Source of the DNA: a virus
Taxonomy: Duplodnaviria; Heunggongvirae; Uroviricota; Caudoviricetes
Direction: 5' to 3' (one strand)
DNA length: 30,107 nucleotides
IMG/VR virus record: IMGVR_UViG_2698536535_000005
Coordinates: 1 to 30,107 of that record
A program made the position numbers and the translations under genes. Shown here piece after piece: positions 2,954 through 22,081 of the stretch. How positions within the stretch are numbered: the stretch's first letter is position 1; every line of letters begins with the position of its first letter. The notes beneath the pieces are model-generated. The model did no database searches, was not told the origin of the DNA, and was given only the letters and a program-made list of their open reading frames with translations.

Positions 2954-3751
2954 ATGATTGATATTCATGCCGAATTAAACGAATACAAAAAAGATTTTAT
3001 TTCTTTACGTGAATTTCTTGAGGTCGTGCTTAAGGTCGCTGGTGATGATTATGATGTTTCAGATGTCATAACTTGGATACTCAGGAGAATAAGCGGAGAA
3101 CATATCCGCCTGTACACAGTAAATGAATTTAAGCTGTTGGAATCTTTTTGTAACCCGTATCGGGATGAATTTGATTATGATGTTCTTTATAGAAATCTGA
3201 ATGCGGTTCGGAAACGTGGTTGTTTACCTGGTGAGAGGGATGAAAATGGTTTTCTGGTGTCCGGTTATTGGGAAGATCCCGAATTTGAGAACATTGGATT
3301 TATAAGGGGTGAAATTTTCGCAATTTTTCCCGATGTCCTTGACGCGTTAACGAAGCTGGAAGGCGCTAACTCTTCTGAAAATGACGAGGCACAAGGACGC
3401 GATATTGAAAAGAAAGAGTTGCGTACAGAGGATGATTTATTATCCCAAATCGCAATGCTGGAAAAAGAAAACGCAGAGTTAAGGGCAAGGATAGAGCAGT
3501 TAGAGCAAGAGCGCCCGATACACTTATATAAATACTGGGATAAAGACCCATTAGCTAAGGCTATTGAGATTAGAAACAGAGAGTGGGCCAATTACGATCC
3601 AGAAAATGATTTTGCCACTAGGGGAAATCAAGAAGCGATAACCAGGGAGCTTAAGCAGTGGGGGGCAAGTAATGCACTTGCAACGCTCATAGAGAGGACT
3701 GCCTGCCCTATTAACCGAGACAACAGCCAAAAGAACGCAAAGCCGGATTAA
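2954..3751 (+). CDS. hypothetical protein with central coiled coil (integrase-proximal cargo gene)
   Basis: ORF with GAGG Shine-Dalgarno 7 nt upstream of the ATG at 2954 (track ORF begins at GTG 2948); AT-rich; predicted coiled coil LSQIAMLEKENAELRARIEQLEQER; no recognisable catalytic motif. Confidence 0.6.
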   Translation: MIDIHAELNEYKKDFISLREFLEVVLKVAGDDYDVSDVITWILRRISGEHIRLYTVNEFKLLESFCNPYRDEFDYDVLYRNLNAVRKRGCLPGERDENGFLVSGYWEDPEFENIGFIRGEIFAIFPDVLDALTKLEGANSSENDEAQGRDIEKKELRTEDDLLSQIAMLEKENAELRARIEQLEQERPIHLYKYWDKDPLAKAIEIRNREWANYDPENDFATRGNQEAITRELKQWGASNALATLIERTACPINRDNSQKNAKPD

Positions 3752-3766
3752 CGCACCATACCGCAT

Positions 3767-3807
3767 ACCCTGAGGGTGATTTACTGTTACCCTGAGGGTA
3801 TTTTTTT
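3767..3807 (+). terminator. putative intrinsic terminator formed by two ACCCTGAGGGT boxes followed by a T7 run
   Basis: Boxes at 3767..3777 and 3789..3799 can pair as an 11-bp stem with one central mismatch and an 11-nt loop, followed by TTTTTTT (3801..3807); sits 16 nt after the stop of the 2954..3751 gene. Confidence 0.45.
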
Positions 3808-3909
3808 ATCTTCCCCGTCAATTTTACCATCACCCTTAGGGTAGATTTCCTCCCGATTACCATCACCCTTAGGGTTAATTTCCTTCCGGTAACCATTAGG
3901 CCTGAGGGT
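3767..3909. promoter_or_regulatory. array of five palindromic ACCCTnAGGGT boxes between the integrase-proximal gene and alpA
   Basis: Boxes at 3767, 3789, 3832, 3865 and 3899; spacings 22, 43, 33 and 34 bp are close to multiples of the helical repeat. Confidence 0.5.
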
Positions 3910-3978
3910 ATGAAAATATTCGTTATTTCTGTGCCAGGATTACCTCGTCAAATTGAGTAGACGTTATGAGGTAAATAT

Positions 3979-4176
3979 ATGTCAAATACGCTTATTCGTT
4001 TAACAGAAGTTCAGCGTAGAACTGGATATAGCAAGGCATGGATTTATCGCCTTATGGGGCAAGGTAAATTTCCTGCATCAGTTAAAATTGGCTCGCGAGC
4101 TATTGCTTTCGTTGAGAGTGAAATTGACGAGTGGATTAATCAGCGTATTGCGGAATCACGCGGAACAGCTACCTGA
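3979..4176 (+). CDS. alpA: AlpA-family prophage regulatory protein (excisionase-like HTH regulator)
   Basis: 65-aa protein LIRLTEVQRRTGYSKAWIYRLMGQGKFPASVKIGSRAIAFVESEIDEWINQR, the characteristic AlpA sequence pattern; GAGG Shine-Dalgarno upstream. Confidence 0.85.
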   Translation: MSNTLIRLTEVQRRTGYSKAWIYRLMGQGKFPASVKIGSRAIAFVESEIDEWINQRIAESRGTAT

Positions 4177-4253
4177 TTAAATGGCTACGGGGCTATTTCC
4201 CCCAGCTATCCACCAGCAAATAAAAGTAACTTAATTCGATAGCAGGAGTTTTT

Positions 4254-5054
4254 ATGAAATTTCCAAAAACGCCCGTACAGGGGCGGGGCTTCGTTCGGCC
4301 TGAAAACCAGAATCTGCAAAATTTCGGCGAAATTATCCCGATTATTTCCGGCGTTATTGGCGGGAGTGAAACCACTATTGTTAGCGCCAGAGCGTTACAT
4401 AAGGCGTTAGGTGTAGGGCGCGTTTTCCGTTCGTGGATCAAGGGGCGCATTGAAGAATACGGGTTCACGGAAGGCGTGGATTATGAGGTTGTTGAATATT
4501 TGAGCCGACCCGATCCGGTGAGCGCAAAATCTCGCCAGCAAACCGCTCTTGAGTACATCATCACAGTGAACATGGCGAAAGAACTGGCGATGGTCGAACG
4601 TACCGAACAGGGCCGCGCCGTTCGCCAGTACTTTATCAAATGCGAGGAGGAGCTACACAAGGTTGCGCCTGTTCGTTCCGCAGCGTTACGCCGGGAACTG
4701 AAAGCCCGTATCACAGTTGCCAGCTACTTTAAGCCAATGTGTGCCGCGCTGGAGGCGTACCGGGCTGAACTGGGTAAAAACACACTCCAGCACCACTACA
4801 CCACGGAAGCGAACATGCTGGCGCGTATCGTACTGGGTGGCATGACTGCAAAACAGTGGGCACTGGCGAACGGCATTACAGGCGAACCACGCGACCACAT
4901 GAGCACGTTGCAGCTTGAGCACCTTTCTTACCTTGAGCAGAGCAATATCACGCTGATTGAGTTAGGCCAGGACTACCACCAGCGGAAGGCTGAATTAATT
5001 CGTCTTTCGCAGCGTTGGTTAGCCCGTCGCATGGAGGAAAACAGCCATGTGTAA
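4254..5054 (+). CDS. phage antirepressor-like protein (AntA/AntB-type N-terminal domain, KilAC-like C-terminal region)
   Basis: 266-aa ORF with AGGAG Shine-Dalgarno; N-terminal segment TIVSARALHKALGVGRVFRSWIKGRIEEYGFTEGVDYEV resembles the AntA/AntB antirepressor domain; assignment by eye only. Confidence 0.5.
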   Translation: MKFPKTPVQGRGFVRPENQNLQNFGEIIPIISGVIGGSETTIVSARALHKALGVGRVFRSWIKGRIEEYGFTEGVDYEVVEYLSRPDPVSAKSRQQTALEYIITVNMAKELAMVERTEQGRAVRQYFIKCEEELHKVAPVRSAALRRELKARITVASYFKPMCAALEAYRAELGKNTLQHHYTTEANMLARIVLGGMTAKQWALANGITGEPRDHMSTLQLEHLSYLEQSNITLIELGQDYHQRKAELIRLSQRWLARRMEENSHV

Positions 5055-5771
5055 CGCTCTGACCGTTACAAAAAGAGAAAGCGCCCCGTTGCCGGAGCGC
5101 CTTTGTGAACGAATAGCCTACTGCGCCATATTGCTTACTGTCTACGAGGCAGATTATAGCGTTGTGGTCGCACAGAGTGAAGGCGCTGATCACCGTTACT
5201 ACAGCACGCCAGAAATGCAGAATATTTTGCTGCAAAATGTCGTTGGTCACACTGTCCGGAAAGCAAAAAATTTTGCTGGTGGCGCGACTGATGCGATTTT
5301 GTCAGGTCGCCAGGTGCTGATCAATCTGATGTCTGATTTCGTTCTGGATAAAACAAAGGCGACCGCAGAGGGCCGCCAGTGGGAAAGCTACATACTTGAA
5401 CGCATCGCCAACAATGCCAGATTTGCGGCTGGTGGGCAATGTGTCAGCTTTGCACCAATGACTCTATGTTTAACTGAGGGTCATTATGGTGAATATGCTG
5501 GCTTGCTGGTGGGCTATTCCTGCTCTTTAACATTGCCATGCCGCGATGTTTTCCAGGTATGCGACCCCATTTTTGTGCGCCTGTACTCTTTAAGGAATTT
5601 CTCAAGGATAAACGCACAGGGCGCGAATCTGTTTGACTCATGCTCGTACGCTATCTTTCTGCGCTGTCTTTTCCGTGCCGGTGATGGTGTATTGGTTGAT
5701 TCTTTGTTGGTCATGGCGCAGCCCTGTAAAACGATGCACCGTAGTTCCTCACACCACGGCGCTGGTGATGG

Positions 5772-5951
5772 TTACTCCTGTTCTTTGGCCTTGCGGCGCT
5801 GGCGGTATTCAACTTCTCGCTTTAATGCTGCTGTTACAAACTGCCCTGTACTTTCACCAGGCATTTTTACCGCCTCAACATTGTTCATAACTTCATGCGG
5901 AACCCTTGCCGCAACTGTTTGTGATTTTGCGTTTACTGCTTTTGTCGCCAT
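5772..5951 (-). CDS. ribbon-helix-helix (Arc/MetJ/CopG-like) DNA-binding protein, putative repressor
   Basis: 59-aa minus-strand ORF (below the ORF-track cutoff) MATKAVNAKSQTVAARVPHEVMNNVEAVKMPGESTGQFVTAALKREVEYRQRRKAKEQE; beta-strand/helix/G-x-S/T loop/helix pattern typical of RHH proteins; AAGGGG Shine-Dalgarno 8 nt upstream; palindromic boxes in its promoter region. Confidence 0.5.
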   Translation of the reverse strand: MATKAVNAKSQTVAARVPHEVMNNVEAVKMPGESTGQFVTAALKREVEYRQRRKAKEQE

Positions 5952-5999
5952 GTTGTGTACCCCTTACAAAAAACAAATGCAGTATGCAGGAAAAAAAAT

Positions 6000-7643: not shown

Positions 7644-9445
7644 AAAACGCACCGAGTCTAAAATATCAGCCGAAGGATAAATTCACTGAGGTAATCATTT
7701 TTGCCGGGACGGATGCTTACGCCCATGCTCAACACTGGATTGAAAGTGAAGGACGAAAACACGGCGATAACGTGCCTCCTGTTTACCTGGGGCCAAAGCA
7801 ACTGGCAGACCTGGCGAATATCCGCATTATTGACGAGAAACGCCGTTTTGCGCGTGTCTATATCGCGGGGGAGATAGAGCCAATCCAGATCAATACTATC
7901 GCTGAAAAGCTGGCGCTGGCTGGCGTACAGGAGGCGAAATTATACAAAGGTATCACCGACCAGGAACCGGAGAACTGGCGCGACTACCTGCAACGGATCC
8001 GCGAACAGGCTGAGCACGGGGAAGTTTCAGTGATGAAATTAGCTACAAAAAATAGTGGTCTACCCAAGCCTGCATTAAATCAGATGGGAGCCAGCCAGAG
8101 AGGGGAAGTGTTACTTGAACATTATGGAGGAGCACTGGCGATAAATGATGATTCTGATGTAGTTCACCATTACAACGGAATTGTTTGGGAGCCTGTATCT
8201 GATAAGGAACTCCAGCGGTCTATGGCGAAGATTTTTATTGATGCCGAAATTAGTTATTCGCAAAACGCCATTAAATTTGCCGTAGAGACAATGAAATTGA
8301 GTCTACCTGTTATGGGGGGAGCGGACAGAAATCTTATTGGGTTCAGTAACGGTGTTTTTGATATCAGGACAGGAAATTTTCGGGAACACAACAAAAATGA
8401 CTGGTTGTTAAATGCCAGTGAATTACCGTTCAGCCCGCCAGAAGAGGGGGAAACGCTGGCAACACATGCGCCGAATTTCTGGAAGTGGTTGCGTCGTTCG
8501 GTGGCGGATAATGCTCGTAAAGCGGATCGCGTACTGGCGGCATTATTCATGGTACTGGCGAACCGGTACGACTGGCAGTTATTCCTTGAGGTAACGGGGC
8601 CGGGCGGAAGCGGTAAAAGTGTGATGGCGGAGATTTGTACCATGCTGGCGGGTAAGGCCAACACAGTATCGGCAAGCATGAAGGCTCTGGAAGACGCAAG
8701 GGAACGCGCGTTAGTAGTTGGCTTTTCGCTGATTATCATGCCGGATATGACTCGCTACGCTGGCGATGGTGCAGGAATTAAGGCAATTACTGGCGGCGAC
8801 AAGGTGGCAATTGATCCGAAACATAAAGCCCCCTACTCCACACGTATTCCGGCAGTAGTGCTTGCGGTAAACAATAACGCCATGTCATTCAGTGACCGAA
8901 GCGGGGGGATCTCGCGTCGTAGGGTGATATTTAATTTCTCTGAGGTCGTACCGGAGAACGAACGCGATCCCATGCTGGCGGAAAAGATAGAAGGCGAACT
9001 GGCGGTAGTGATTCGCCATTTGCTAACACGATTTACCGACCAGGACGAAGCTAAAAGACTACTTTATGAGCAGCAAAAATCAGAAGAAGCGCTGTTGATA
9101 AAGCGCGAAGGTGATTCACTGGTGGACTTTTGCGGCTATCTGATGTCGTTGGTTAAATGTGAAGGAATGATGGTGGGCAATGCGGAAATAGTGCCATTTA
9201 GCCCGAGGCGATACCTGTATCATGCTTATTTAGCCTATATGTCAGCGCATGGCCTGGGAAAACCAGTATCACTGACACGCTTTGGTACTGATATGCCAGG
9301 AGCTATGGCGGAATACGGAAAGGAGTATAAGCGGGCTAAATGCACTAAAGGCCCGGATAAAGGGCGAGTGATAACAAATGTTCTGTTAGATGATGATGCT
9401 GATGGCTGGTTGCCAGCAGCTACAGGGATTAACGACAGAACATAA
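7640..9445 (+). CDS. P4-family phage/plasmid primase-helicase (C-terminal P-loop NTPase domain)
   Basis: 601-aa ORF, GTG start after GGGAGG; Walker A VTGPGGSGKS and downstream Walker-B-like hydrophobic-DM stretch; overall resemblance to P4 alpha C-terminal / pri-rep proteins of satellites; iteron array immediately downstream. Confidence 0.75.
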   Translation: MKNAPSLKYQPKDKFTEVIIFAGTDAYAHAQHWIESEGRKHGDNVPPVYLGPKQLADLANIRIIDEKRRFARVYIAGEIEPIQINTIAEKLALAGVQEAKLYKGITDQEPENWRDYLQRIREQAEHGEVSVMKLATKNSGLPKPALNQMGASQRGEVLLEHYGGALAINDDSDVVHHYNGIVWEPVSDKELQRSMAKIFIDAEISYSQNAIKFAVETMKLSLPVMGGADRNLIGFSNGVFDIRTGNFREHNKNDWLLNASELPFSPPEEGETLATHAPNFWKWLRRSVADNARKADRVLAALFMVLANRYDWQLFLEVTGPGGSGKSVMAEICTMLAGKANTVSASMKALEDARERALVVGFSLIIMPDMTRYAGDGAGIKAITGGDKVAIDPKHKAPYSTRIPAVVLAVNNNAMSFSDRSGGISRRRVIFNFSEVVPENERDPMLAEKIEGELAVVIRHLLTRFTDQDEAKRLLYEQQKSEEALLIKREGDSLVDFCGYLMSLVKCEGMMVGNAEIVPFSPRRYLYHAYLAYMSAHGLGKPVSLTRFGTDMPGAMAEYGKEYKRAKCTKGPDKGRVITNVLLDDDADGWLPAATGINDRT

Positions 9446-9472
9446 TACGAAATTTATAAGCTGAAACGTAAA

Positions 9473-9811
9473 GGTAGACGGTTGGTAGACAGATTCACTT
9501 AACCCTCTACCAACCATCTACCAATTAATATTTTGAATTATAAAGATATTTTCAATGTGGTAGAGAGGTAGACAGTTATTTCTATATTCCTAAACCACGG
9601 GGGGTATATAAAAAACAGATAGTTAAGGGGGTATTTTTTAAATTTCTCTTTTAACTGTCTACACTGTCTACCATTTAGTAAAAATCATTAATTATCAATG
9701 TATTAATGCGGTAGACCGTTGGTAGACAGTTTGCAGATTGTTTTTTTGTTATGTGTTAATAACATTAAATAAATCAATCAATTATATCGGTAGACAGTTG
9801 GTAGACAGTTG
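9473..9811. repeat. iteron array, putative replication origin of the element
   Basis: At least ten copies of GGTAGAC(AGTT) in both orientations (e.g. 9473, 9484, 9567, 9708, 9721, 9788, 9800; inverted at 9504, 9515, 9655, 9664) interspersed with AT-rich stretches, directly 3' of the primase gene. Confidence 0.7.
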
Positions 9812-9816
9812 TAACG

Positions 9817-10359
9817 ATGGGGCAAAGCATGACTAAGCTGACCATTAACAGAAAACCAAAAGGTATTTACGGCACGCCACAGAAAACGACGCAGGCGGCA
9901 CAGGAGCAGGATAAAACCACATCGGCGCATAAAGTGATGCCCGGTAACCAGAAAGCGCAGCAGAAGCCTACAGGGGCGACACCGTGGCGGCATATGACCA
10001 AACGCCAGCGCAAAAACCGCAGGCGCGTTAACCGCCTCACTGAGTTGTGGCCTGACTTATTCAGCCGGGAAGCACTGAAGCCGCTTAAGGTGGGGATATT
10101 CGACGACCTGATGCAGGATCTCGCCGTCAGGGGGCTGGCATTCGGGCCAGGGGCATTGCGTGCGACGCTGGCATCTTATGCGCAGTGTCCGCGCTATTAC
10201 CGCGCCTTAATGGCTGGTGGGGTACGCTACGACCTGAAAGGCCAGCCGTGCGGCGAGGTGACACCACAGGAACAACAGGACGCAGAAACGCGGCTGGTGG
10301 CGCTGAATGAGAAGCGCAAACGCCAGCGCCGGGCAGCAAAGGAGACAATAGGCGCATGA
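9817..10359 (+). CDS. FinO/ProQ-family RNA-binding protein
   Basis: Central region ALKPLKVGIFDDLMQDL...LRATLASYAQCPRYYRALMAGGVRYDLKGQPCGEVTPQE aligns by eye with the E. coli ProQ N-terminal FinO domain (PLKIGIF, LR.AL..Y, RY, R.DL.G.PCGE). Confidence 0.6.
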   Translation: MGQSMTKLTINRKPKGIYGTPQKTTQAAQEQDKTTSAHKVMPGNQKAQQKPTGATPWRHMTKRQRKNRRRVNRLTELWPDLFSREALKPLKVGIFDDLMQDLAVRGLAFGPGALRATLASYAQCPRYYRALMAGGVRYDLKGQPCGEVTPQEQQDAETRLVALNEKRKRQRRAAKETIGA

Positions 10360-10643
10360 TTCACGACAGCAAAGCGGAAGCACTGGAAGCGCGTGGTCTG
10401 TACCGGAGAGCGGCGGCGCGGTGGGCTGAGGTCATCATGCTGGCGAATGATGACAAGGCACGGGAACAGGCGGCAAAACGTCGCGCGGAATGTATCCACA
10501 AGGCAGCATGCCCACCAGCAAGGCAGGATAATTTCGGGGAGATGCGCGAAACCATCAGCCGGGCACATGCCGGGATGGGATTACATCAGCCCAATGGTGA
10601 GGCATTCAGGAAATACCAAAAAAAGAACAATTGTAGTCAGTAA
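10356..10643 (+). CDS. PerC-like small transcriptional regulator (tentative)
   Basis: 95-aa ORF with AAGGAG Shine-Dalgarno; N-terminus MIHDSKAEALEARGLYRRAAARWAEV resembles the PerC/Pch family N-terminal pattern as I recall it. Confidence 0.4.
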   Translation: MIHDSKAEALEARGLYRRAAARWAEVIMLANDDKAREQAAKRRAECIHKAACPPARQDNFGEMRETISRAHAGMGLHQPNGEAFRKYQKKNNCSQ

Positions 10644-10777
10644 CAGAGGATGGGATTCTCTTGGTTTTTTGTTGATGCTTTCTGAGGAAATCTACTACGT
10701 TGCTGAGCAGATGAATATTCAATTGCATCTGGGTTCCTGATAAGATTAATCTGAATATTTTCATTTGGAATAGGGAT

Positions 10778-11920
10778 ATGAATAAAACTTTAATTGCAAC
10801 ATTAGTCGGTATAGTAATGTTAACCGGATGTGGGCCAGAAGAGTTAACTCCAGAACAGAAACAGGAAGTAGCGGCTCTTAAAGCTGAACTGTCGCAAACG
10901 GAAGGTGAAATATCAGCAGCTAAGGAAGTTGACCAGCAGTTTTCTGGTGGGTTGATAAAAAATCTGACAACAGCAAGACTGGAAATATTAGGAACTAATA
11001 AAGCGCTTTTGGAACAGCGTATTAATGCTATTGAATCAGGTGCCAAAATTGATGTTGTTGTATCTGGAGTAAAACCTGATCCTGAGCTTGCGGCTTCAAT
11101 TAAAACTGAAATTGACAGCTTAGATGCAAAAATCAACGAAGCCAAAGCTGATGCTCGTCAGTATAGTGGTGGTCTGATAAAGGTACTAAAATTATCTACT
11201 GTTGCCACTGAAGAGCAGACCATGGCAATGTTGCAGCAAAAGTACCTCACAGCCAAGTATGGCCTCGCTGAAGTTAAGCTGGCATCAGTACAAGCTAATG
11301 ACGCAAAAAACAGTACTGAAACGGAAGTAACAGCCAAAAATTCCCAAGAGCAACTTCCTTTACTCCCGCCAGCGGATGGTCCGTTTGGCTTAGAAGCCGG
11401 TCTTACACAGAAAAACATCGAAGATATGATCGGTGCTAAGCTCAAGCCACTACCAGACAGTGTGAATCTGTATACTTCTGATAAATTACCGAAGCAAAAC
11501 GCAGATTTTGAAATGTATGGTTTGCTGATCTCCCCGAAAGCTGGTTTATGTCAAATACGGGCTTTAGGAAAAAATATTGATACTGATAGCTATGGATTGG
11601 CTCTTAAATCCAAGTTTGAAGAATTGAGTAATTCTTTAAGTTCTCTGTATGGAAAGGCTGATACTACAGACTTTTTGCTGGCTGGTTCAATTTGGAAAGA
11701 TCCTCAGGACTGGATGAGGGGGCTAAACAAAAAAGAACGCTTCTTATCTGCCACATGGAAGGGAACAAAAGAAATACCATTAAAAAACAATATCGATACT
11801 ATCTCTATTGAGGCCAGAGCGAACAATTCCACTCAGGGATATGTCTATCTGCAGTACTCATTTACAAATGACGAAATTTGTCAGGCAGAAATTGAAGGGG
11901 CGAAAAAAAGTTCCCTTTAA
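10778..11920 (+). CDS. lipoprotein with coiled-coil region and internal repeat
   Basis: Signal peptide MNKTLIATLVGIVMLTGC with LTGC lipobox; repeated motif QFSGGLIKNL / QYSGGLIKVL; AT-rich; intrinsic terminator directly downstream. Confidence 0.7.
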   Translation: MNKTLIATLVGIVMLTGCGPEELTPEQKQEVAALKAELSQTEGEISAAKEVDQQFSGGLIKNLTTARLEILGTNKALLEQRINAIESGAKIDVVVSGVKPDPELAASIKTEIDSLDAKINEAKADARQYSGGLIKVLKLSTVATEEQTMAMLQQKYLTAKYGLAEVKLASVQANDAKNSTETEVTAKNSQEQLPLLPPADGPFGLEAGLTQKNIEDMIGAKLKPLPDSVNLYTSDKLPKQNADFEMYGLLISPKAGLCQIRALGKNIDTDSYGLALKSKFEELSNSLSSLYGKADTTDFLLAGSIWKDPQDWMRGLNKKERFLSATWKGTKEIPLKNNIDTISIEARANNSTQGYVYLQYSFTNDEICQAEIEGAKKSSL

Positions 11921-11931
11921 ACAATCCGTGC

Positions 11932-11960
11932 AAAGCCCCTTAGTAAGGGGCTTTTATATA
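11932..11960 (+). terminator. intrinsic terminator
   Basis: Perfect inverted repeat AAAGCCCCTTA/TAAGGGGCTTT (11932..11954) followed by a T-rich tail. Confidence 0.55.
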
Positions 11961-11984
11961 TTAATGTTCAACGGGGGGGATTAG

Positions 11985-12308
11985 ATGAAAGATAATCTAG
12001 AAAAACTAATTGAAAATACTTTAAAAGATATTCTATTAGCTAATGCTGCTCTAACATTCATTTTTGCAATACCAATGGCTATTATCAGTAGGCATGGGAT
12101 GGGTATCACAATCTGGTTTATAACTGTGCTCATTGCACCTGCTCTGTGTGCAGTAGGTGCATGGCTTGTATCTCGAACATTCGGTCATGCTGAGGAGTTC
12201 TTTCATCGTCGGTGGGCTAAGCGAATCTATGTTTTTTATACTCTTGCGGCTGCCGAGTTTTTGCTTGTGTACTCAATCGCGCAAATAATGAAAAATCTGA
12301 TGAAATAA
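11985..12308 (+). CDS. small integral membrane protein
   Basis: 107-aa ORF with two or three long hydrophobic segments (ALTFIFAIPMAIIS, ITIWFITVLIAPALCAVGAWLV, IYVFYTLAAAEFLLVYSI); G-rich Shine-Dalgarno. Confidence 0.5.
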   Translation: MKDNLEKLIENTLKDILLANAALTFIFAIPMAIISRHGMGITIWFITVLIAPALCAVGAWLVSRTFGHAEEFFHRRWAKRIYVFYTLAAAEFLLVYSIAQIMKNLMK

Positions 12309-12711
12309 TTAACAAGTTATTATCATGGGGTTTGTGGCTGTTAACCTGCAGTGAGGCGACAATCGTGTATTTATAAAAACTTCCCCTTTTCACTCCCCGC
12401 TGTTTCTTCTGCTATTTCCTTTATGTTTGCATGCAGCAACATCTACCATACCTTTGCAGAAAAATCAGAGCATTTAGTGCCGAAGGTTGGTTTATTGATG
12501 CTTTTTGTTTCATTTATTGCAATTATTGTCATTCAGAAGGGATCATCATGAAAAATCACGGAGTAAAGCCAGTTTTACTTTCCCGGGGGCAGATCGAAGC
12601 CCTGTAACGTATCCAGGCCGAAAAGCGTCAGAAATCTGTGCTTGGTGTGGCACCGTCGATTCATGTTATTGCCCGGCAACTGATGGATAAGGCACTTAAA
12701 GAGGTGAGGCT

Positions 12712-12984
12712 GTGAAATTAAATATCAGTGTGGATAAACGCCAGCTATGGCAGAAAAAAGAGAACAGCGAGGCATTCAGGGCTTTGCTGGTGGAAAATCT
12801 TCGGCACCGGTTCAGTGGAGAGTTGCCTGATGCACTGGGGAAGAAACTGGAATCCCTGACGGTGGAAATTGGCGATTATGGCTTTGTTGATGTTGAAAGC
12901 ACGACTGCCAACACAGAAATCGTAAAGCAGGTCGTCAATGATGTAATGAAAACCACGCTTAGCCAGCCATCCTGGCGCAACTGA
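12712..12984 (+). CDS. hypothetical protein
   Basis: 90-aa ORF with GTG start after GAGGTGAGG; no recognisable motif. Confidence 0.35.
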   Translation: MKLNISVDKRQLWQKKENSEAFRALLVENLRHRFSGELPDALGKKLESLTVEIGDYGFVDVESTTANTEIVKQVVNDVMKTTLSQPSWRN

Positions 12985-13083
12985 ATCAGTAAGGGGCGGT
13001 TATTGCCCCTTTCCTCCATACCCACAACGCATTCCCTTTTCGCATGAAATTATTTTTTATCGTATATGCATGAGGTGAGTTAC

Positions 13084-13608
13084 ATGTTGATGAGTAAAGC
13101 CGAATACGCCAAATACAAAGGCGTAAGCCGCCAGACAGTTTACGACTGGATCGAGAAAGGCGAAGTGATCATGTCTGGCAAAAAAATTGATGTGGAGGCG
13201 ACAGAGCAGCGGAACAGCCCACCGGCACAGGGGAAAGACACCGTTTCTGAAATGTGGCCAGAAAGAACGCTGGAAATGACGTGGGGCGAGTTCTGGAAAG
13301 CAGTTAAGGCCAGAGACGGTAAAATCCCTGCGCCAGTAACGGACGACGACATACAGCAACGTGTGCTGGATGCAGCCGGGGAATTAGACTGGGAAGTGCA
13401 ATTTCTTGATGATGGCGGGATTTGGATGGATGACGGCGATGCTGAGTTTTATTTCGAGCAATATGATCTCAGGCAGAATGCCGAACTGGTGATTGGTACG
13501 CTGCGACGTGAGGTCTGTTATGTGGCTGATGCTTGTCCTGACGAGCTGGATAACTGGAGCGAAGCCGGACTAAACGCCCTGGCTGCATGGGAAAAAACAG
13601 GTCATTAA
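13084..13608 (+). CDS. HTH DNA-binding protein with acidic C-terminal domain (possible small-terminase-like or regulatory protein)
   Basis: Start taken at the ATG preceded by GAGGTGA (track ORF starts 13066); N-terminal MSKAEYAKYKGVSRQTVYDWIEKGEV is a phage-type helix-turn-helix; repeat array immediately downstream. Confidence 0.55.
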   Translation: MLMSKAEYAKYKGVSRQTVYDWIEKGEVIMSGKKIDVEATEQRNSPPAQGKDTVSEMWPERTLEMTWGEFWKAVKARDGKIPAPVTDDDIQQRVLDAAGELDWEVQFLDDGGIWMDDGDAEFYFEQYDLRQNAELVIGTLRREVCYVADACPDELDNWSEAGLNALAAWEKTGH

Positions 13609-13615
13609 CGGCCGC

Positions 13616-13821
13616 AAAAAGTGTCAAGTTGAGCAGCTTGCCAGGTTGGCACTTTACACTCTGAACACGAAAAAGTGTCAACCTCGCTGTAAACCCTGCC
13701 ATTACTGGCCTTGAGCCATATTTACCACGCCAGAAACCCGTGAAAACCGCGAAAAGTGTCAAGTTGTCATGCTTAGAAATGCCAGGGTTTTTCGCGAAAA
13801 AGTGTCAAGTGTGTCAACCTG
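13616..13821. repeat. array of AAAAGTGTCAA boxes (putative protein-binding sites)
   Basis: Five GTGTCAA cores at 13621, 13675, 13756, 13803 and 13811, most preceded by an A-run, between the HTH gene and the next small ORF. Confidence 0.6.
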
Positions 13822-13850
13822 CGATATTAAGATTTCCTAAGGTGTAAACC

Positions 13851-14045
13851 ATGACCATCACCGAAGCCGATTTGCTGGATATAGTGCGCAGCGTGGCTGG
13901 AATTAGCGAATTGCCAAAGAAAGCCAGATTTGCCGATTATGCGGACGTGGTAGCTGCTGCAATGCAGCTAGAAGATCATGCTCCGAATGAAGGAGATTTG
14001 CTGCATATCCGCATCCGATCGGCGGCGATACTGGCAGCCCGTTGA
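13851..14045 (+). CDS. small hypothetical protein
   Basis: 64-aa ORF; weak support only. Confidence 0.3.
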   Translation: MTITEADLLDIVRSVAGISELPKKARFADYADVVAAAMQLEDHAPNEGDLLHIRIRSAAILAAR

Positions 14046-14432: not shown

Positions 14433-15122
14433 ATGAACAAATCACCTACTGAGATAATTAATATGCTAAGCGATAAGTTCAATAGTAACTTTCGTGAATG
14501 GCAGGGCATACAAGATAAAAAATTAGATAAAGTAATTATCTCAATTTTCACTCTTAACACGATTGCTGAAATTTTGAATAAAAAGAAAACATCAGTTCAT
14601 CATGATGTTTGTATTAAAATTTTTAGTGAGATTATTGCTGATACGTCATCTTCTTTATATCTTTCTGCCTGTGCCATAGATAAACCAGCTAATATTGTTC
14701 TAAGGAGAGTTTTGGAACTAGGTGTCGCATCTATTTATCTTTGGGATATGCCTCATGTTGTATATTCTTGGAAAAATCATGATGAAGACTTAAGTTTCAG
14801 TGATATGTTGAAGCATATAACAAATCAAGGCTATATAGACTACTTCACAGAAAATGAGAAGATAGGAGGGAAAGTATGTGTTATTGATATGAGAAGAGCA
14901 CAGAAAATTTATGGACAATTAAGTGATATCGTTCATGGAAAAATAACCTCATTTGAAACTGATTTGCCTAATAAGTTCACTTTTGAAAGTGAAGATTGGG
15001 AGAGGTTCATAGGTCTGGCTGAGGTTGTTTTGGGTATGATAATTAATTCCAATATTGTTCGTCATAAGATAAGAAAAGAAGTGCTATCTTCATTTCCTAA
15101 ATCTAGTGAGGTAGTTTTATAA
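14433..15122 (+). CDS. hypothetical protein, component A of candidate two-gene system
   Basis: 229-aa ORF, strongly AT-rich; stop overlaps the start of the downstream ATPase gene (TAATG); no recognisable catalytic motif. Confidence 0.7.
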   Translation: MNKSPTEIINMLSDKFNSNFREWQGIQDKKLDKVIISIFTLNTIAEILNKKKTSVHHDVCIKIFSEIIADTSSSLYLSACAIDKPANIVLRRVLELGVASIYLWDMPHVVYSWKNHDEDLSFSDMLKHITNQGYIDYFTENEKIGGKVCVIDMRRAQKIYGQLSDIVHGKITSFETDLPNKFTFESEDWERFIGLAEVVLGMIINSNIVRHKIRKEVLSSFPKSSEVVL

Positions 15123-16852
15123 TGTCTATGTTAGACACTGAGTTATTACATGCAGCACGTACCGAAGATCTTGAGTTGAAACAGGTCAAACAACTGGCTG
15201 TTCTTGGTGAGTTTGAAAAAGATGTTGTAGCAAAACTAAAAATAGCGGGCTCTCATCTGATTCAGGGTGCCAGAGGAATTGGAAAGTCTATGCTTCTAAG
15301 AGCGGCAGAAGCTGAATTAGATAGTGATTTTCCTGTTAAAAAGATTGTGGGGGTATATGTTAATTTCAAAACCAGTACTTTGCTGGAAGGGGTTAAAGCT
15401 GACAATAAAAATGCATTTCAGATATGGGTAAGCGCTAAGTTACTACAAGCTTTGTACGAAAAGTTGATATTTTTAGATGTCATTCGTGACAATAATAGCA
15501 GTGATCCATTTCAAAGAATTTTTGGGATTAAAACTATAACTGGAATGAAAGATGCTCTACAATCTAAAATTCATCTGCTTCAAAGGTTATCAAGAGATCC
15601 TTCTTCAGATAAATTGTTGAATGAAATTGGAGAGGATTTTTTAGATAAGGTTAATGATATAAGTTATGTAAATGACATCATCAAGGAGATAATTCAAGAA
15701 TACCAACTTAATAGAATTGTTTTTTTATTTGATGAGGCTGCTCATACCTTTATACCAGAACAGCAGGAAATATTCTTCGAAATATTTAAATTGCTTCATG
15801 GCGGTAAAATTGCAGTTAAGGCGGCTGTATATCCGTCAATTACATCGTATGGTAAAAATTTTGAAGTTGGTCAAGATGCCATGATGATAAACCTCGGAGG
15901 ATACGAAACTGGAAATATTGGGCGGGAACGAACACGACGTTTATATCGTGATCTATTAGATAAACGGGTCACACAAGGAGCAGCAAAAAAGAGAATATTG
16001 GCTAAAGGTGATTTGCTAGATCAATGTATTCATCTTTCATCCGGAAACCCTAGAGCATTTCTCCATTTATTTAATAAAGTATATGAGAAAGGTTATACTG
16101 AAAGAGATCTTTTAACTTGCACTCAGGATTATGTCAATCAAGAATTATTACCTTATCATTTAGGGCTTTCAAAACGATTACCTAAGTATTCTCACCATGT
16201 TCGCATTGGACTTGATATTCTTAGGGAGTGTATTATCCCTGAGCTTAGATTGAAAAATAACAGAGAGAAAAAGACTCAAACCCAATCTGCTTTTTTTGTT
16301 CTTCCTCCCGTTATTTCTCCAAATCTTAGATTGTCTCTAGATTTGCTTTGTTATTCTGGTGTTCTTTCCAAGCAAGGGTCCGTGAAGATGTCTAATCGAA
16401 AATCGGGTCAGCGCTACATGGTTAATTTATCATTACTTTTCACTGAAAAAGCATTCGTATCTAATAAGTTCGGGGAGATAATAACACTATTATCTCTCGC
16501 TGATTATAAAGAATTTGGCGCAGCAGATTCTGAATTAGAGCGTTTTTTAGAAAAATTGAAAGAATCAGCTGATGAGTGTCAAACTTGTTCCGCTGAGTTA
16601 CCTGGAGATGCGAAGTTTTGTCCTAAGTGTGGGACACCTGTACCAACAAGGTCAATTGTAGGACAACTTCTTGATGATCCGGTTAGTTGCTTGTCAATTA
16701 GTAACGCAATATGCGACCGAATAAAAGAAACCTATCCTAAAGTGGGTGATATCGTTCACTGTTCGAGGGATGATCTGAAAAAAATACCGTACATTAAAAA
16801 TGTTAGGTCAAAAATAATCAAGAACGCAGCGGATGAATATATCTCAGGCTAA
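15122..16852 (+). CDS. Orc1/Cdc6-like AAA+ ATPase with C-terminal zinc ribbon and HhH (RNA polymerase alpha-CTD-like) domain, component B
   Basis: 576-aa ORF; Walker A GARGIGKS, Walker B IVFLFDEAAH, sensor-2-like SGNPRAF; C-terminal CQTC-x11-CPKC zinc ribbon; last ~60 aa resemble the RpoA alpha-CTD; GAGG Shine-Dalgarno; terminator downstream. Confidence 0.8.
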   Translation: MSMLDTELLHAARTEDLELKQVKQLAVLGEFEKDVVAKLKIAGSHLIQGARGIGKSMLLRAAEAELDSDFPVKKIVGVYVNFKTSTLLEGVKADNKNAFQIWVSAKLLQALYEKLIFLDVIRDNNSSDPFQRIFGIKTITGMKDALQSKIHLLQRLSRDPSSDKLLNEIGEDFLDKVNDISYVNDIIKEIIQEYQLNRIVFLFDEAAHTFIPEQQEIFFEIFKLLHGGKIAVKAAVYPSITSYGKNFEVGQDAMMINLGGYETGNIGRERTRRLYRDLLDKRVTQGAAKKRILAKGDLLDQCIHLSSGNPRAFLHLFNKVYEKGYTERDLLTCTQDYVNQELLPYHLGLSKRLPKYSHHVRIGLDILRECIIPELRLKNNREKKTQTQSAFFVLPPVISPNLRLSLDLLCYSGVLSKQGSVKMSNRKSGQRYMVNLSLLFTEKAFVSNKFGEIITLLSLADYKEFGAADSELERFLEKLKESADECQTCSAELPGDAKFCPKCGTPVPTRSIVGQLLDDPVSCLSISNAICDRIKETYPKVGDIVHCSRDDLKKIPYIKNVRSKIIKNAADEYISG

Positions 16853-16892: not shown

Positions 16893-17284
16893 TTATACTT
16901 TTAATGCCCGCCAATGCATTAATTCAATTCTTTGTATTAAATAATTAGATCTATTATAAGCTCTTCTGACTTCATTTCTATCAATATGAGATAATGACGT
17001 CTCTATTGCATCTGAATTAAACCCTGCTTCATTTAAAGTTTTACTCGCAATAGAACGCATCCCATGGTAACTAGCTTTCCACCGTAACCAATTCATTTAA
17101 GAGCAGCATTAGCCGTTTGACTATTCATTGGTTGCATAGGATCGTTTCTGCTAGGGAATACATATTCTCGATGACTACTAATAGGTTTCATCACATCCAG
17201 AAATTCTAATGCCTGTGGAAATAAATGAGCAATGTGTTTCCGGTTAGCCTTCATCCGTTCGGTGGGAATTGCGGAGGGCAGCAT
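16893..17284 (-). pseudogene. integrase remnant (C-terminal part of a P4-type tyrosine recombinase, frameshifted and 5'-truncated)
   Basis: Two adjacent minus-strand ORFs (16893..17096, 17093..17284) together align with the C-terminal ~130 aa of the integrase at 1611..2825 (FPSRNDP vs FPGRNDP; HIDRNEVRRAYNRSNYL vs HVDKNSIRGTYNHAQYL); no N-terminal half is present. Confidence 0.7.
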
Positions 17285-17680
17285 AAATGCAGAGGGAAAT
17301 CTGCAAATCCTAGGCTGGCCTTGCCATAAAGCGAAGACGGCGCGGGAGCATACAAGATGATAATTATTATTAGTAACAAAGGGGAGGGCGGGTCAAATCT
17401 CTGTACCCCTAGCTGTTCTGGACCGCCTGCCTCGTCAAATTTTTACACCCGCAAAATTAAAAAAAATACTTCACGCTGGTGGTTATCCTTGGGCATCCAC
17501 TAGCCTTTCATCATTGACTGCTGGTGAGGCTGAGACTCGAAGAAAAAGAGTGCTAGAGAGTCGGTTTTTGCACAGTTTGGGGTAAGGGAAAATTTATTGG
17601 GGGTACATTTGGGGGTATATATAAAAATGCAATGTAAAAATGTCATTAAATATCAATGCGATTGTTGTTTGTGTTTTGTT

Positions 17681-17696
17681 CCTATTATCGCACCAT
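17681..17696. repeat. attR core: degenerate direct repeat of the thrW 3' end
   Basis: CCTATTATCGCACCAT matches tRNA positions 1429..1445 (CCTATTATCGGCACCAT) except for one deleted G. Confidence 0.6.
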
Positions 17697-18302
17697 CAAG
17701 AAAATCAATAACTTAGCTTAACTTCTCTAAGAAATTGTATCTTCTGTTATCACTTACAAACGCCTATACGTTGTTATGGGCTTTGGTAGTGTAACACGTA
17801 TGGGCGAGTAGTTCCCAGGCTCAACCTCGTAACAAGTTCCTTTGAAGCTGGAAGACGTGCCACCGTCTCTAAACCTTCTACCAAAACTCTTAGCAAGATG
17901 TTCCACACCTGGCGCGGTGTCCAATGATGCTACACGTCGAGATGACGTCGCAGAGGATAAACAGGCTAAATGATGGGAAGAGTTTTAAGTGCAATAGTGG
18001 ATTAAAGCCCACCTCTTCAAAACCTAACTTGATCGGGAAAGAATCAAGCTCTAGCACGGTTTCGTCCACCGGAGTACAACGGGTGCCTGATAAGAGAAGA
18101 ACTGCTAAGACTTCATAGCTTTTGTGAAAAAGCCCTTTTTAGTGGATATGCCTACGGCGCTTATTTTTTGGTATAACCATCAAAGGCGCTTTATGGCTCC
18201 TATTGTCTTGAAAATGTATCTTTACTTGTATTGTGTTTTATGCGTAGTCTCCCTGTGTAGTATGTAACTTGTTAATTTTCATATGAATACAGAGGCAACA
18301 CG

Positions 18303-18455
18303 ATGAAAAACATTGCAGCTATAAAACGTAATAACCGCAAGATTCACGCTCGTAAGTTCCTGTCTACGCCAGAGGGAAAAGCCTGGCTAGAGCGTAAACA
18401 GCGAGAGAACGAAGAAAGAAAACTCCTTAGTGAGTTGAAATGGCTTAAGGATTGA
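18303..18455 (+). CDS. small basic hypothetical protein (50 aa)
   Basis: MKNIAAIKRNNRKIHARKFLSTPEGKAWLERKQRENEERKLLSELKWLKD; AGAGG Shine-Dalgarno 8 nt upstream; below the ORF-track cutoff. Confidence 0.25.
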   Translation: MKNIAAIKRNNRKIHARKFLSTPEGKAWLERKQRENEERKLLSELKWLKD

Positions 18456-19005
18456 ATCACCAGTAGGCGCATAACACATCCAGCAATCAAAGATGTGTTT
18501 GTGCGCCTGATAGTGAAATTATTAAAGTTTTTTAGTTAATGTAGCCATTGCATGAACGATGATCGCTAGTGAATCGATTTTATCTCGAGGGGTAAAATAG
18601 ATGAGGTATATGATGGTAACAATTACAGCTAAAGTAATTGTGGTTCTGCAGGTTTTTAAAATGGATAAGATAAAGCGCATAGATACCCCCTATTGATTTA
18701 ACAACAACAAGGTATCATTTATTTTTTATTGCATGCAATGTGCAAATTTTCACATATAATAGCTTACTATTCACTTTGCATGGTGTCAACAAGATGATGT
18801 GTTGTTTTGTTTGATTTGTTCAAGATAATATTTCATTTTCTCATCTATATAACTTGTGTTTTAGATAATTTCACTAATTGTAAAAGTTACGTATTGCTTA
18901 ATAGCTGCCTTTTTATCTGAAATCGGCGCAAACGTGATCAATGTTTAACGCGAAGATCAGCGGCGTCAGGTCCACGCAGCGACAATTCTCAAATATCAGG
19001 AGGCA

Positions 19006-19563
19006 TTACGCTTCCTGCTCTTTCTTGATACGTTGCACCGTCTGTGTGCTGACACTGAAATCTTTTGCTACGCTCCGAATTGATCCACCATTCGCGAGAG
19101 CGGCAACAATTCCCGCTCGATCAATTGCTTTTCCATTACCACGTTTTGCTATACGTCCAGCGGCCTTAGCTGCGGCAATCCCCTCACGTTGCCGCTCAAG
19201 CATCATTTCACGTTCCATTTGTGCCACTGCTGCAAGCACTGTGAGCATCATATTCCCTGCGGGAGAGTTCTTCCCTGTCTTAAAGTCTTCTTTATGGAAA
19301 TGCACAGACACGCCGCGCTCTGTTAATTGCTCAACCGTTGCCAGTAGGTCGGCTGTATTACGGCAAAGTCGATCAATGCTGTGAACATGCAAAACATCAC
19401 CTTCACGCACATAGTTCATCATTGCCTCAAACTGTGGGCGCTGGGTATTCTTGCCTGACGCTTTATCTTCAAAGACTTTATCAAGAGTTACTCCAGCTAA
19501 TTGACGGTCTGTGTTTTGTTGGACAGTCGATACCCTAATGTATCCAATATTAGCCATTTTCAT
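19006..19563 (-). CDS. serine recombinase (resolvase/invertase family)
   Basis: 185-aa protein; N-terminal catalytic motif GYIRVSTVQQNTDRQ with the nucleophilic Ser; small-recombinase length with C-terminal HTH-like region (GGSIRSVAKDFSVSTQTVQRI). Confidence 0.85.
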   Translation of the reverse strand: MKMANIGYIRVSTVQQNTDRQLAGVTLDKVFEDKASGKNTQRPQFEAMMNYVREGDVLHVHSIDRLCRNTADLLATVEQLTERGVSVHFHKEDFKTGKNSPAGNMMLTVLAAVAQMEREMMLERQREGIAAAKAAGRIAKRGNGKAIDRAGIVAALANGGSIRSVAKDFSVSTQTVQRIKKEQEA

Positions 19564-19584
19564 TTTCCTTCTGTGTTGATTTGT

Positions 19585-19688
19585 GTGTAGTGATTATTGA
19601 TCGTGTTGATTAGGTGTGTAAAGGACTTTTTTCACTACGAAATTCGAAGGTTTTTAGTGTGGTGATTTAGCCTGCTTTATCACTACAC
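19585..19688. promoter_or_regulatory. putative res/recombination site upstream of the serine recombinase
   Basis: Four related half-sites: GTGTAGTGA (19585..19593), TCACTAC (19632..19638, inverted), GTGTGGTGA (19657..19665), TCACTACAC (19680..19688, inverted). Confidence 0.4.
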
Positions 19689-20085
19689 GTCTTGCATGAG
19701 AATCATGTAGTTATGTTTTGGTAAAATTAGCAAGCTATTAAATAGCGTGTTTATTTTGAAAAAATTAATTTTTTCAACACGTGAAAGGAACTTGTTCGAC
19801 AAATAATAGATTGATTTTTAATCAACAATTTCTGATAGTGCTCTGTAAGCCACATTACACAAGGCGCAGCGAAAGTGATGTAAAAGTGAAGAAAGCTAAC
19901 ATTGCACTTTTAAGCTACTTTTCATTGAATTTTTAGTATGGAATTACATAGGGATTAATCATCAATTAATCTTGAATTTAAGCCTGTTTTAGATGTTTAA
20001 TTTTTGATAGCAAGAAACACTTTTAGAAGATCATTGCACAGATGTTATGTGATAAATGGATGTAACGGTAGGTCACTGTGAACTA

Positions 20086-20222
20086 CCCCCCACAGAATTC
20101 TGTTATCCTTAACTTTTAAAGAAATATGCACCCTAACAGAAAACTGTTACCCCAACCCTAACAGAATTATGTTAGACACCCCCACAGAAAACTGTTAGCC
20201 ACCCCTACAGAATTTTGTTACC
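20086..20222. repeat. five palindrome-containing iterons (consensus about CCCYAACAGAAWWCTGTTA)
   Basis: Units at about 20086, 20129, 20154, 20180 and 20203; the last four tandem with a ~24-bp period; each contains ACAGAAnnCTGT-type inverted repeat (ACAGAATTCTGT is a perfect palindrome). Confidence 0.7.
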
Positions 20223-20909: not shown

Positions 20910-20938
20910 TTGACAAAAGCTTTTAGTCGTGGTAAAGT
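20910..20938 (+). promoter_or_regulatory. candidate sigma70 promoter for the rightward small-gene operon
   Basis: TTGACA (20910..20915), 17-bp spacer, TAAAGT (20933..20938), about 120 nt upstream of the 21059 ATG, which has an AGGAGG Shine-Dalgarno. Confidence 0.4.
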
Positions 20939-21058
20939 AATATTAGGGACAGAAAACATTCTTATCCTCTAAGTAATTAAACCAATGCACCGCACTTTGA
21001 AGCCCAAGGCTTGCAAGGTGTCTTTTTCTTTTAACCAAATAGAATAGGAGGTTAATTA

Positions 21059-21259: not shown

Positions 21260-21278
21260 AGAAGAGAAGGAGAAAACT

Positions 21279-22072: not shown

Positions 22073-22081
22073 GGAGAATAA

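Follow-up and report, generated by a model that had tools for sequence, protein, structure and literature searches.

The window analysed here, a stretch of 30,107 nucleotides (positions 1 to 30,107 of IMG/VR record IMGVR_UViG_2698536535_000005), carries at positions 10778–12308 a cassette of two genes, which encode a lipoprotein of 380 residues and a small membrane protein of 107 residues. The lipoprotein gene is moron-type cargo of a mobile element and forms a self-contained transcription unit, in which the promoter-like block is putative. The lipoprotein is composed of a helical stalk and a globular head, two previously undescribed domains that are absent from Pfam and NCBIfam. We rate the cassette as a moron-encoded envelope protein of a mobile element, which is a known kind, with domains that are new. 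It is possible, and is proposed here tentatively as the leading reading, that the lipoprotein excludes superinfecting phages, with its head binding to a conserved component on which the delivery of phage genomes depends. This functional reading is drawn from the genomic context of the gene.

The lipoprotein gene occupies positions 10778–11920 of the plus strand, stop codon included, and its product is annotated as the hypothetical protein WP_001044338.1. The N-terminus of the protein reads MNKTLIATLVGIVMLTGC, a signal peptide that extends up to the lipobox L-T-G-C (residues 1–18, positions 10778–10831, plus strand). In the hydrophobicity profile, the lipobox L15-T16-G17-C18 is preceded by an MNK n-region and a hydrophobic core (MNKTLIATLVGIVM-LTGC). 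The lipobox fits the pattern [LVI][ASTVI][GAS]C of the substrates of Lgt, LspA, and Lnt, with the cysteine at position 18, and residues G17, C18, G19, and P20 are invariant among 27 homologues with identities down to 59%. The open reading frame and the lipobox described in an initial annotation of this DNA, which had been made from the sequence alone, are confirmed. Cys18 is the predicted lipidated residue. According to the Escherichia coli +2 rule of Lol avoidance, a residue other than aspartate after the lipidated cysteine directs a lipoprotein to the outer membrane. Because the +2 position is occupied by Gly19, which is invariant in the family, and not by aspartate, outer-membrane sorting of the lipoprotein is predicted. 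We infer that the protein is anchored in the outer membrane, with its head in the periplasm. Neither the sequence nor the AlphaFold2 model contains a hydrophobic segment beyond the signal peptide.

The N-terminal stalk domain (residues 20–165, positions 10835–11272, plus strand) consists of two tandem helical hairpins. Four long helices spanning residues 25–53, 59–87, 102–126, and 133–161 are predicted by AlphaFold2, in agreement with the coiled coil noted in the initial annotation. The motifs QFSGGLIK (residues 54–61, positions 10937–10960) and QYSGGLIK (residues 128–135, positions 11159–11182), both on the plus strand, are the turns of two homologous helical hairpins. The duplication spans approximately 50 residues around each copy of the GGLIK motif. 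Alignment of the two halves of the stalk gave a local score of 76, compared with 27.2 ± 4.9 and a maximum of 52 for 500 shuffles, and the internal repeat that had been recognized from the duplicated motif is thus far above the shuffled controls. In the alignment of the 27 homologues, G57 of the first motif copy is nearly invariant and G58, L59, and I60 are invariant, as are Y129, G131, G132, and L133 of the second copy.

The stalk is connected to the head by a variable linker of low predicted order (residues 166–196, positions 11273–11365, plus strand). The predicted local distance difference test score (pLDDT) of the AlphaFold2 model is below 50 at residues 164–195, and the alignment columns of the linker are the least conserved among the homologues. 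The rate of non-synonymous substitution (dN) is 0.22–0.29 in the linker, compared with 0.01–0.06 in the stalk and head domains. The C-terminal head (residues 197–380, positions 11366–11917, plus strand) is a globular alpha/beta domain with the motifs GPFGL, GLC, GSIW, and ER.L.A.W. Modelled alone with 45 sequences, the head reached a pLDDT of 96.5, which is very confident. The head has two cysteines that occur together in 38 sequences and are jointly absent from six, with a mixed state in one. A disulfide between C258 and C368 is probable, because the two cysteines are kept or lost together, a pattern fitting an exported domain.

A word-indexed search found 318 homologues of the lipoprotein at E ≤ 1e-3, all unnamed, across Enterobacterales. 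At the same threshold, 2,870 cluster representatives with either domain were recovered by an exhaustive profile search. In the exhaustive search the stalk and the head are independent modules. The cysteine column of the stalk module is at least 90% conserved, indicating that almost every member is a lipoprotein. The stalk domain, recognizable by the lipobox, LSPE, and two YSGGL hairpins, is joined by linkers of low complexity to four or more different heads (proteins P0178–P0284, for example P0186, P0252, and P0184). A Pfam scan of these alternative heads found no known domain except for one VasI-like head. The head domain mostly stands alone, as a secreted protein of ~195 residues beginning with GPFGL, and is present in Proteobacteria, Deferribacter, Acidobacteriota, Spirochaetes, Bacteroidetes, and Prochlorococcus. 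The head-only homologues from Prochlorococcus single-cell genomes have ~198–205 residues and 37–42% identity (loci L079, L080, L088, L090, L095, and L097); Prochlorococcus is an unexpected host, as the domain is otherwise seen in mobile elements of enterobacteria.

The initial annotation had looked to homology and structure searches for the function of the lipoprotein; they returned no library match, and the fold matches are weak and generic. For the cassette proteins, PADLOC gave no hit, the best E-values were 0.03 in PHROGs and 0.17 in Pfam, and NCBIfam gave weak matches only, mostly over the N-terminal signal-peptide region and far below the cut-offs. The LTXXQ (CpxP/Spy) family was considered for residues 23–86 and set aside, with an insignificant E-value of 0.17 and no such PDB protein matched by the stalk profile. 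Sequence searches of the PDB, run with the full-length protein and with separate profiles of the head and the stalk, found only designed coiled coils and antibody chains. The fold search placed the head near DcrB, the N-terminal domain of BamC, LpqN, and PsbP/Mog1-like proteins, and the domain can be likened to Mog1/PsbP/DcrB-like and double-wing periplasmic alpha/beta domains (RhsI1, PA1624, DcrB, SciW, and YdcD). Its best match among viral structures is a lipoprotein of Erwinia phage Midgardsormr38 (Foldseek E 9e-7, TM 0.62). No paper on the lipoprotein family was found by accession, sequence motif, or topic.

Other weak fold matches of the head are the YdcD double-wing domain, TsiN, TplEi, and the type VI chaperone SciW. 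They fit a reading in which the lipoprotein is an orphan immunity-like protein, whose head would bind and neutralize toxins active in the periplasm, for example type VI effectors, contact-dependent toxins, or colicins. The stalk relative with the VasI-like, type VI-associated head and the swappable heads, which resemble polymorphic systems, point in the same direction. However, no toxin gene adjoins the cassette in the window, and no toxin, Rhs, contact-dependent inhibition, or type VI gene is recurrent among 122 neighbouring proteins from 17 species. Furthermore, immunity proteins usually evolve fast, whereas the head is strongly conserved. A role in toxin immunity is therefore very unlikely.

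Comparison with the Klebsiella and Citrobacter copies gave ratios of non-synonymous to synonymous substitution rates (dN/dS) of 0.05–0.08 for the lipoprotein gene and 0.15–0.21 for the 107-residue gene, with dS up to ~1.4. Because both open reading frames are under purifying selection, they are real genes. The guanine-plus-cytosine (GC) content is 0.404 in the lipoprotein gene and 0.380 in the 107-residue gene, compared with 0.488 in the primase gene, 0.584 in proQ, 0.552 in perC, and 0.508 in the downstream gene of a 180-residue protein; the AT-richness of both genes noted in the initial annotation is upheld, at 0.40 and 0.38 against flanks of 0.49–0.58.

The cassette is present in 113 of 5,426 complete E. 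coli genomes (~2%), with an identity of ≥99% in 112 of these. The neighbouring proQ-perC core, which is more diverged than the cassette, occurs in 321 of the 5,426 genomes. Carriers of the cassette include the enteroaggregative strain 55989 and the O104:H4 outbreak strain 2011C-3493. In strain 55989, the identical lipoprotein WP_001044338.1 is encoded behind a different primase type. At the same place, strain HNSQ2209 has two small hypothetical genes and genes for a NUDIX hydrolase and a DUF2213 protein, and strain ECE228 has no annotated gene between perC and the flanking chromosomal yejO pseudogene. The lipoprotein gene was found in satellites, siphophage prophages, and chromosomal islets. 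The gene thus combines the attributes of a moron: a deviating GC content, a terminator of its own, variation in presence and absence, and occurrence in several types of element. The foreign GC content, the gene's own terminators, the promoter-like block that travels with it, its patchy occurrence in 113 genomes against 321 for the core, and the exchange of other genes at the same slot indicate that the gene is cargo and not core, as the initial annotation had supposed.

Approximately 50 nucleotides 5′ of the ATG of the lipoprotein gene are conserved among the closer enterobacterial relatives and contain the motif TGATAGGATTAATCC; the more distal sequence varies by context. The motif sits 25–40 nucleotides 5′ of the lipoprotein start and was seen at loci L051–L056, L019, L029, and L061. 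In the window, alignments of the upstream regions delimit the conserved block TGATAAGATTAATCT at positions 10738–10752. The block includes the −10-like hexamer TAAGAT (10741–10746), a form of the conserved element TA(A/G)GAT, and the 10-nucleotide palindrome AGATTAATCT (10743–10752). In the relatives the palindrome reads GGATTAATCC, and its symmetry is preserved by a paired change. A ribosome-binding site, AGGGA (10772–10776), located just 5′ of the ATG at position 10778, is kept in the upstream alignments; all these elements are on the plus strand. Judged from its conservation, the block at 10738–10752 may be the lipoprotein gene's own promoter or operator. The palindrome could serve as an operator for a dimeric regulator, for which the PerC-like activator encoded just upstream is the obvious candidate.

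The terminator-like hairpin between the two genes that was mentioned in the initial annotation is an intrinsic terminator, AAAGCCCCTTAGTAAGGGGCTTT (positions 11932–11954, plus strand), with 10 base pairs followed by a T-rich tail (five T in eight bases). It is kept in the Klebsiella, Citrobacter, and Edwardsiella copies. An intrinsic terminator is positioned 3′ of the stop codon in all six aligned lipoprotein homologues, which come from five genera and several contexts. Four of the six copies have the same hairpin, and those from Enterobacter and Pantoea each have a different one. Lineages without the 107-residue gene have a different terminator at the same place after the lipoprotein gene. 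A terminator 3′ of the lipoprotein gene is also found inside prophage tail operons.

The window is E. coli chromosome, and its positions 9000–14000 are 100% identical to strain SCU-316. The gene order in SCU-316 starts with proA, tRNA-Thr, an integrase, a hypothetical protein of 265 residues, a helix-turn-helix regulator, and AntA, and continues with several small genes in either orientation, among them those for Icd-like and DUF4222 proteins, and then the primase, ProQ/FinO, PerC, and then the cassette. The cassette is followed by an open reading frame of 90 residues and the 180-residue protein, both of which are conserved satellite genes. The N-terminal helix-turn-helix of the 180-residue protein resembles terminase small subunits (phrog_57, E 1.8e-6). 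No structural genes were found in the satellite up to ~14 kb of the window. By its gene content, the element is assigned to the primase-bearing phage satellites of the phage-inducible chromosomal island (PICI) type, located at tRNA-Thr downstream of proA. The initial annotation had placed the cassette directly after the conserved core. The cassette does follow pri-proQ-perC, but further conserved satellite genes come after it, and its position is in the middle of the element, between pri-proQ-perC and the genes for the 90- and 180-residue products, not at the end. In PICI satellites, an accessory or immune region is located adjacent to pri (He et al. 2024, PMC11364771). The cassette has a similar address, a mid-satellite slot downstream of the primase gene (PMC11364771), with proQ and perC separating it from pri in the window.

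The genomic contexts of relatives were surveyed at 32 loci from viral contigs and at 58 loci with a called head-domain gene (61 loci returned), the latter from one genome per species. A tape-measure gene is located within six genes at 24 of the 32 viral-contig loci, compared with four of the 58 loci of the other set. The tape-measure-linked loci comprise at least seven arrangements and three tape-measure gene clusters, and include both full-length and head-only forms. In L034 and L036 the lipoprotein gene is followed by the tape measure, and in L037 and L062 by a gene of 273 residues and then a lambda-type tape measure. In L059 the lipoprotein gene, with a terminator, is positioned exactly between the tape measure and gpM; its GC content is 0.38, and that of its flanks is 0.52–0.55. 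The tape measure is followed by a head-only protein in L043, and by a 143-residue lipoprotein and then a head-only protein in the Acinetobacter prophage L010. The most recurrent Pfam families among the 122 neighbouring proteins are those of tape-measure and tail proteins. Beyond the prophages, the lipoprotein gene of Enterobacter hormaechei directly follows the primase of a similar satellite and has no 107-residue gene next to it.

In L010, the gene for the 143-residue lipoprotein (5556–5987; phrog_890, E 8e-30) is immediately before that of the head-only homologue, both are between the tape measure and gpM, and a TonB_C-domain protein is encoded a few genes on; these genes form an envelope-moron cluster in one tail operon. 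The loci L020–L031 and L057 (IMG/VR contigs of ~20–70 kb; Pantoea septica) are satellite-like, with a DUF927 primase and a single-stranded DNA-binding protein. They encode a full-length tape measure of 857–1023 residues (phrog_1538, E 8e-119) a few genes after the lipoprotein homologue, as well as a tail-completion-like protein, and it is unusual for a small primase-type element to have a tape measure of its own.

The tail-operon junction is not reserved for the lipoprotein. The gene order in L036 is major tail protein, chaperone-like gene, moron island, and tape measure, and the island (3260–5361) holds, besides the lipoprotein gene, a gene for a Doc-like toxin, an oppositely oriented one for an Ant anti-repressor, and one for an Arc-like regulator. 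Because unrelated morons share this island, the tail-junction position marks an add-on slot and not a function. A specific functional link to the tape-measure protein was considered and has been downgraded for this reason; the adjacency may reflect only a permissive insertion slot.

A further reading is that the lipoprotein, like T5 Llp, serves the spread of the element itself and not host defence. It would be made in the lytic or induction cycle and would mask a receptor or envelope component, so that released particles are not wasted on debris or on cells already carrying the element. The gene is inside a late tail operon in prophages, and in the satellite it is located between the replication genes and the gene with the helix-turn-helix like that of terminase small subunits. 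T5 Llp and Cor are also lipoproteins encoded near tail genes. However, the terminator, the promoter-like block, and the foreign GC content indicate expression independent of the late operon, and Llp and Cor are small proteins of ~60–80 residues that are unrelated in sequence. We regard this explanation as improbable.

The second gene of the cassette (positions 11985–12308, plus strand) encodes the small multi-pass membrane protein of the initial annotation, which is borne out by the open reading frame of 107 residues, annotated as hypothetical, and by three hydrophobic segments at approximately residues 16–35, 39–62, and 82–102. The loop between the second and third segments (residues 63–81) is positively charged. 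Because of the positive-inside rule, a topology with the N-terminus inside and the C-terminus outside is predicted, and the protein is probably located in the inner membrane. The family of the 107-residue protein has only 17 homologue clusters. In all eight contexts that were read, from Klebsiella, Edwardsiella, and Citrobacter, the gene is located ~65 nucleotides after a 380-residue lipoprotein gene; the contexts belong to different islands, and the identity of the 107-residue protein across them is 67–95%. There is no room for a promoter between the terminator and the open reading frame, and the 107-residue gene is therefore probably expressed by partial read-through.

Pairing of the two genes, as implied by the initial annotation, stands in one direction only: the 107-residue gene was always beside the lipoprotein gene in the contexts read, but the lipoprotein gene is usually without it. 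It is quite conceivable, if somewhat short of an even chance, that the two are neighbours only and that the 107-residue gene is an independent small cargo inserted behind the terminator in one sub-lineage. The conserved intrinsic terminator parts the two genes, the lipoprotein family has hundreds of clusters compared with 17 for the 107-residue family, other genes are downstream of most lipoprotein homologues, and the 107-residue protein has almost no periplasmic surface with which to touch the head. Against mere neighbourhood, all eight contexts keep the spacing behind the 380-residue gene, also at 67–72% protein identity and in different islands of Klebsiella, Citrobacter, Edwardsiella, and E. 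coli, read-through from the lipoprotein gene is probably needed for expression of the 107-residue gene, and purifying selection acts on both genes. We conclude that the 107-residue protein, as an accessory found in a single sub-lineage, depends on the lipoprotein but is not an obligate second half.

The initial annotation had suggested that envelope proteins at such a position often mediate superinfection exclusion or abortive infection. No direct evidence for either was found, and nothing points to abortive infection in particular. In the mechanism of exclusion that we consider possible, the lipoprotein would be synthesized with a signal peptide, receive its lipid at Cys18, and be delivered to the outer membrane, and its head would hang in the periplasm on the stalk and the ~30-residue flexible linker. 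The head would bind a conserved component that tailed phages need for crossing the envelope. The target may be a periplasmic or membrane factor of the host, or else a conserved element of the tail-tip or tape-measure apparatus. Binding by the head would block genome delivery of superinfecting phages, and the 107-residue protein may add a second layer of exclusion at the inner membrane. The link to phage biology is drawn from the satellite slot downstream of pri, the prophage tail junctions, the defence genes exchanged at the 3′ end of the satellite lineage, and the Erwinia phage lipoprotein with the head fold.

The closest precedent is gene 15 of phage HK97, the first described moron, which has proven superinfection exclusion activity and blocks genome entry (PMC3594210). 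It is located at the junction of the tail-chaperone and tape-measure genes (PMC3594210), the same junction that holds the lipoprotein homologues in L034 and L036. Gene 15 is an add-on gene with its own promoter, terminator, and deviating GC content, and the cassette is alike, except that its promoter is putative. The gene 15 product (gp15) is an envelope protein expressed from the prophage, and the lipoprotein is likewise a predicted envelope protein. Both families have many non-phage chromosomal relatives, gp15 being related to host YebO. However, gp15 is small, resides in the inner membrane, and belongs to the YebO family, to which the 380-residue lipoprotein has no sequence similarity, with no such family among its Pfam hits, and the exclusion activity of gp15 was shown by experiment, whereas that of the lipoprotein is proposed from context.

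Lipid-anchored proteins that act on incoming phages are also known. T5 Llp and phi80/N15 Cor are phage lipoproteins that block the FhuA receptor. Ltp of Streptococcus phage TP-J34, which has two helix-turn-helix-like repeats, is lipid-anchored and blocks tape-measure-dependent DNA injection. Llp, Cor, and Ltp share with the lipoprotein of the cassette carriage by mobile elements and a lipid anchor, which is predicted in the present case. They have no sequence or profile similarity to it, and its hairpin stalk and Mog1/PsbP/DcrB-like head distinguish it from them. T4 Imm and Sp are small envelope proteins that stop genome entry at different layers. An outer-membrane lipoprotein combined with a small inner-membrane protein would be an analogous pairing, although the proteins are not homologous, only one sub-lineage has the pairing, and a terminator separates the genes. 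By sequence or profile, the cassette proteins did not group with Cor, Llp, Ltp, SieA, Imm/Sp, gp15/YebO, TraT, Bor, or any PADLOC system. A spanin/holin pair was rejected, as there is no C-terminal anchor, no holin or endolysin gene nearby, and no PHROG hit annotated as holin. The Tai system of PICI satellites was ruled out as well: Tai acts on a tail assembly step, and its description mentions no lipoproteins, signal peptides, or transmembrane segments (PMC11364771), whereas the lipoprotein is predicted to be exported.

Several results weigh against exclusion of incoming phages. Both proteins are without sequence or profile matches to known exclusion or defence proteins in Pfam, NCBIfam, PHROGs, and PADLOC, and a tblastn search of the head against 50,697 GenBank phage records found no homologue. 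The head has a dN/dS of 0.025–0.05, indicating strong purifying selection, and is widespread as a plain chromosomal secreted protein without phage context in Prochlorococcus, Acidobacteriota, Spirochaetes, and other groups. The Pantoea copy of the lipoprotein gene is in an ordinary chromosomal neighbourhood, near folD. Purifying selection and the chromosomal spread of the head are no less compatible with a general envelope function than with an arms race. The L036 junction is a general moron slot, a consensus promoter scan called no site at the 10738–10752 block, and the terminator between the genes together with the frequent occurrence of the lipoprotein alone speaks against an obligate two-part system.

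These observations also bear on the possibility that the lipoprotein is a factor of lysogenic conversion or host fitness, which changes a property of the envelope and is carried for the benefit of the host. Lambda Bor and Lom are lysogenic-conversion envelope factors. The benefit could lie in stress tolerance, serum or antimicrobial resistance, adhesion, or the architecture of peptidoglycan and the outer membrane. A host function would agree with the very strong purifying selection, the Pantoea setting, and the nature of the head as an ancient, widespread secreted domain of free-living bacteria of many phyla. The stalk appears as a general lipoprotein scaffold, which carries one VasI-like head and has one plasmid homologue annotated as peptidoglycan-binding. 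The fold neighbours of the head (DcrB, the BamC N-terminal domain, LpqN, and PsbP/Mog1-like proteins) include envelope proteins, and morons have many non-defence roles (PMC3594210). However, the lipoprotein matches neither Bor/Iss, Lom, and TraT nor any other named envelope family, and its enterobacterial members recur in the accessory regions of satellites and the tail-operon moron slots of prophages. We consider a host-fitness factor possible and only slightly less likely than exclusion of superinfecting phages, which we retain as the leading, though tentative, reading.

Two further regions of the window are separate from the cassette. The 3′ end of the satellite is a distinct swap site, at which candidate or established defence genes are exchanged. 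In Edwardsiella, as in this window, the site encodes a protein of 229 residues and an ORC/CDC6-like ATPase of 576 residues with a zinc ribbon; elsewhere, it contains AAA+DUF4435 (strain 55989), SEFIR/TIR (Citrobacter), or KAP NTPase (Klebsiella) genes. The pair in the window (14433–16852, plus strand) is very AT-rich, with GC contents of 0.32 and 0.36. The 229-residue protein has no family hit, and the 576-residue protein is an ORC/CDC6-like or STAND-type ATPase with a C-terminal zinc ribbon, for which the PADLOC matches are weak only. The pair looks like an uncatalogued defence candidate. Beyond the satellite, positions 17000–30107 form a second AT-rich mobile region, which contains a serine resolvase (19006–19563, minus strand), a homologue of major capsid protein E (24992–26020), an open reading frame of 613 residues, a Dit-like tail protein (28294–28971), and a tyrosine integrase (29052–30050, minus strand). 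The region could represent the remains of a prophage or a satellite that encodes a capsid.

A broader proposal is that the lipoprotein is the first member of a widespread new class of periplasmic entry blockers on satellites and prophages, in which a conserved lipoprotein stalk carries interchangeable heads. The head described here would intercept the siphophage tape-measure or tail-tip channel, or a host factor that is needed, and the 107-residue protein would close the inner-membrane route. We judge this proposal to be distinctly unlikely. If it were true, the 2,870 unannotated cluster representatives would constitute a large hidden reservoir of envelope-level anti-phage functions, and exchange of the heads would provide specificity in a modular way.

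To our knowledge, envelope-level exclusion is the least systematically catalogued anti-phage layer, and the proteins behind it are small and diverse and escape tools for defence finding. The cassette provides a concrete and easily cloned exclusion candidate. If the lipoprotein has a function other than exclusion, it would still represent a large, conserved, and unannotated periplasmic family, and would advise caution against equating an envelope protein of a mobile element with exclusion. If it blocks genome delivery, the cassette would provide two new domain families and an entry point for studying the passage of siphophage DNA through the periplasm, a step that is poorly understood.

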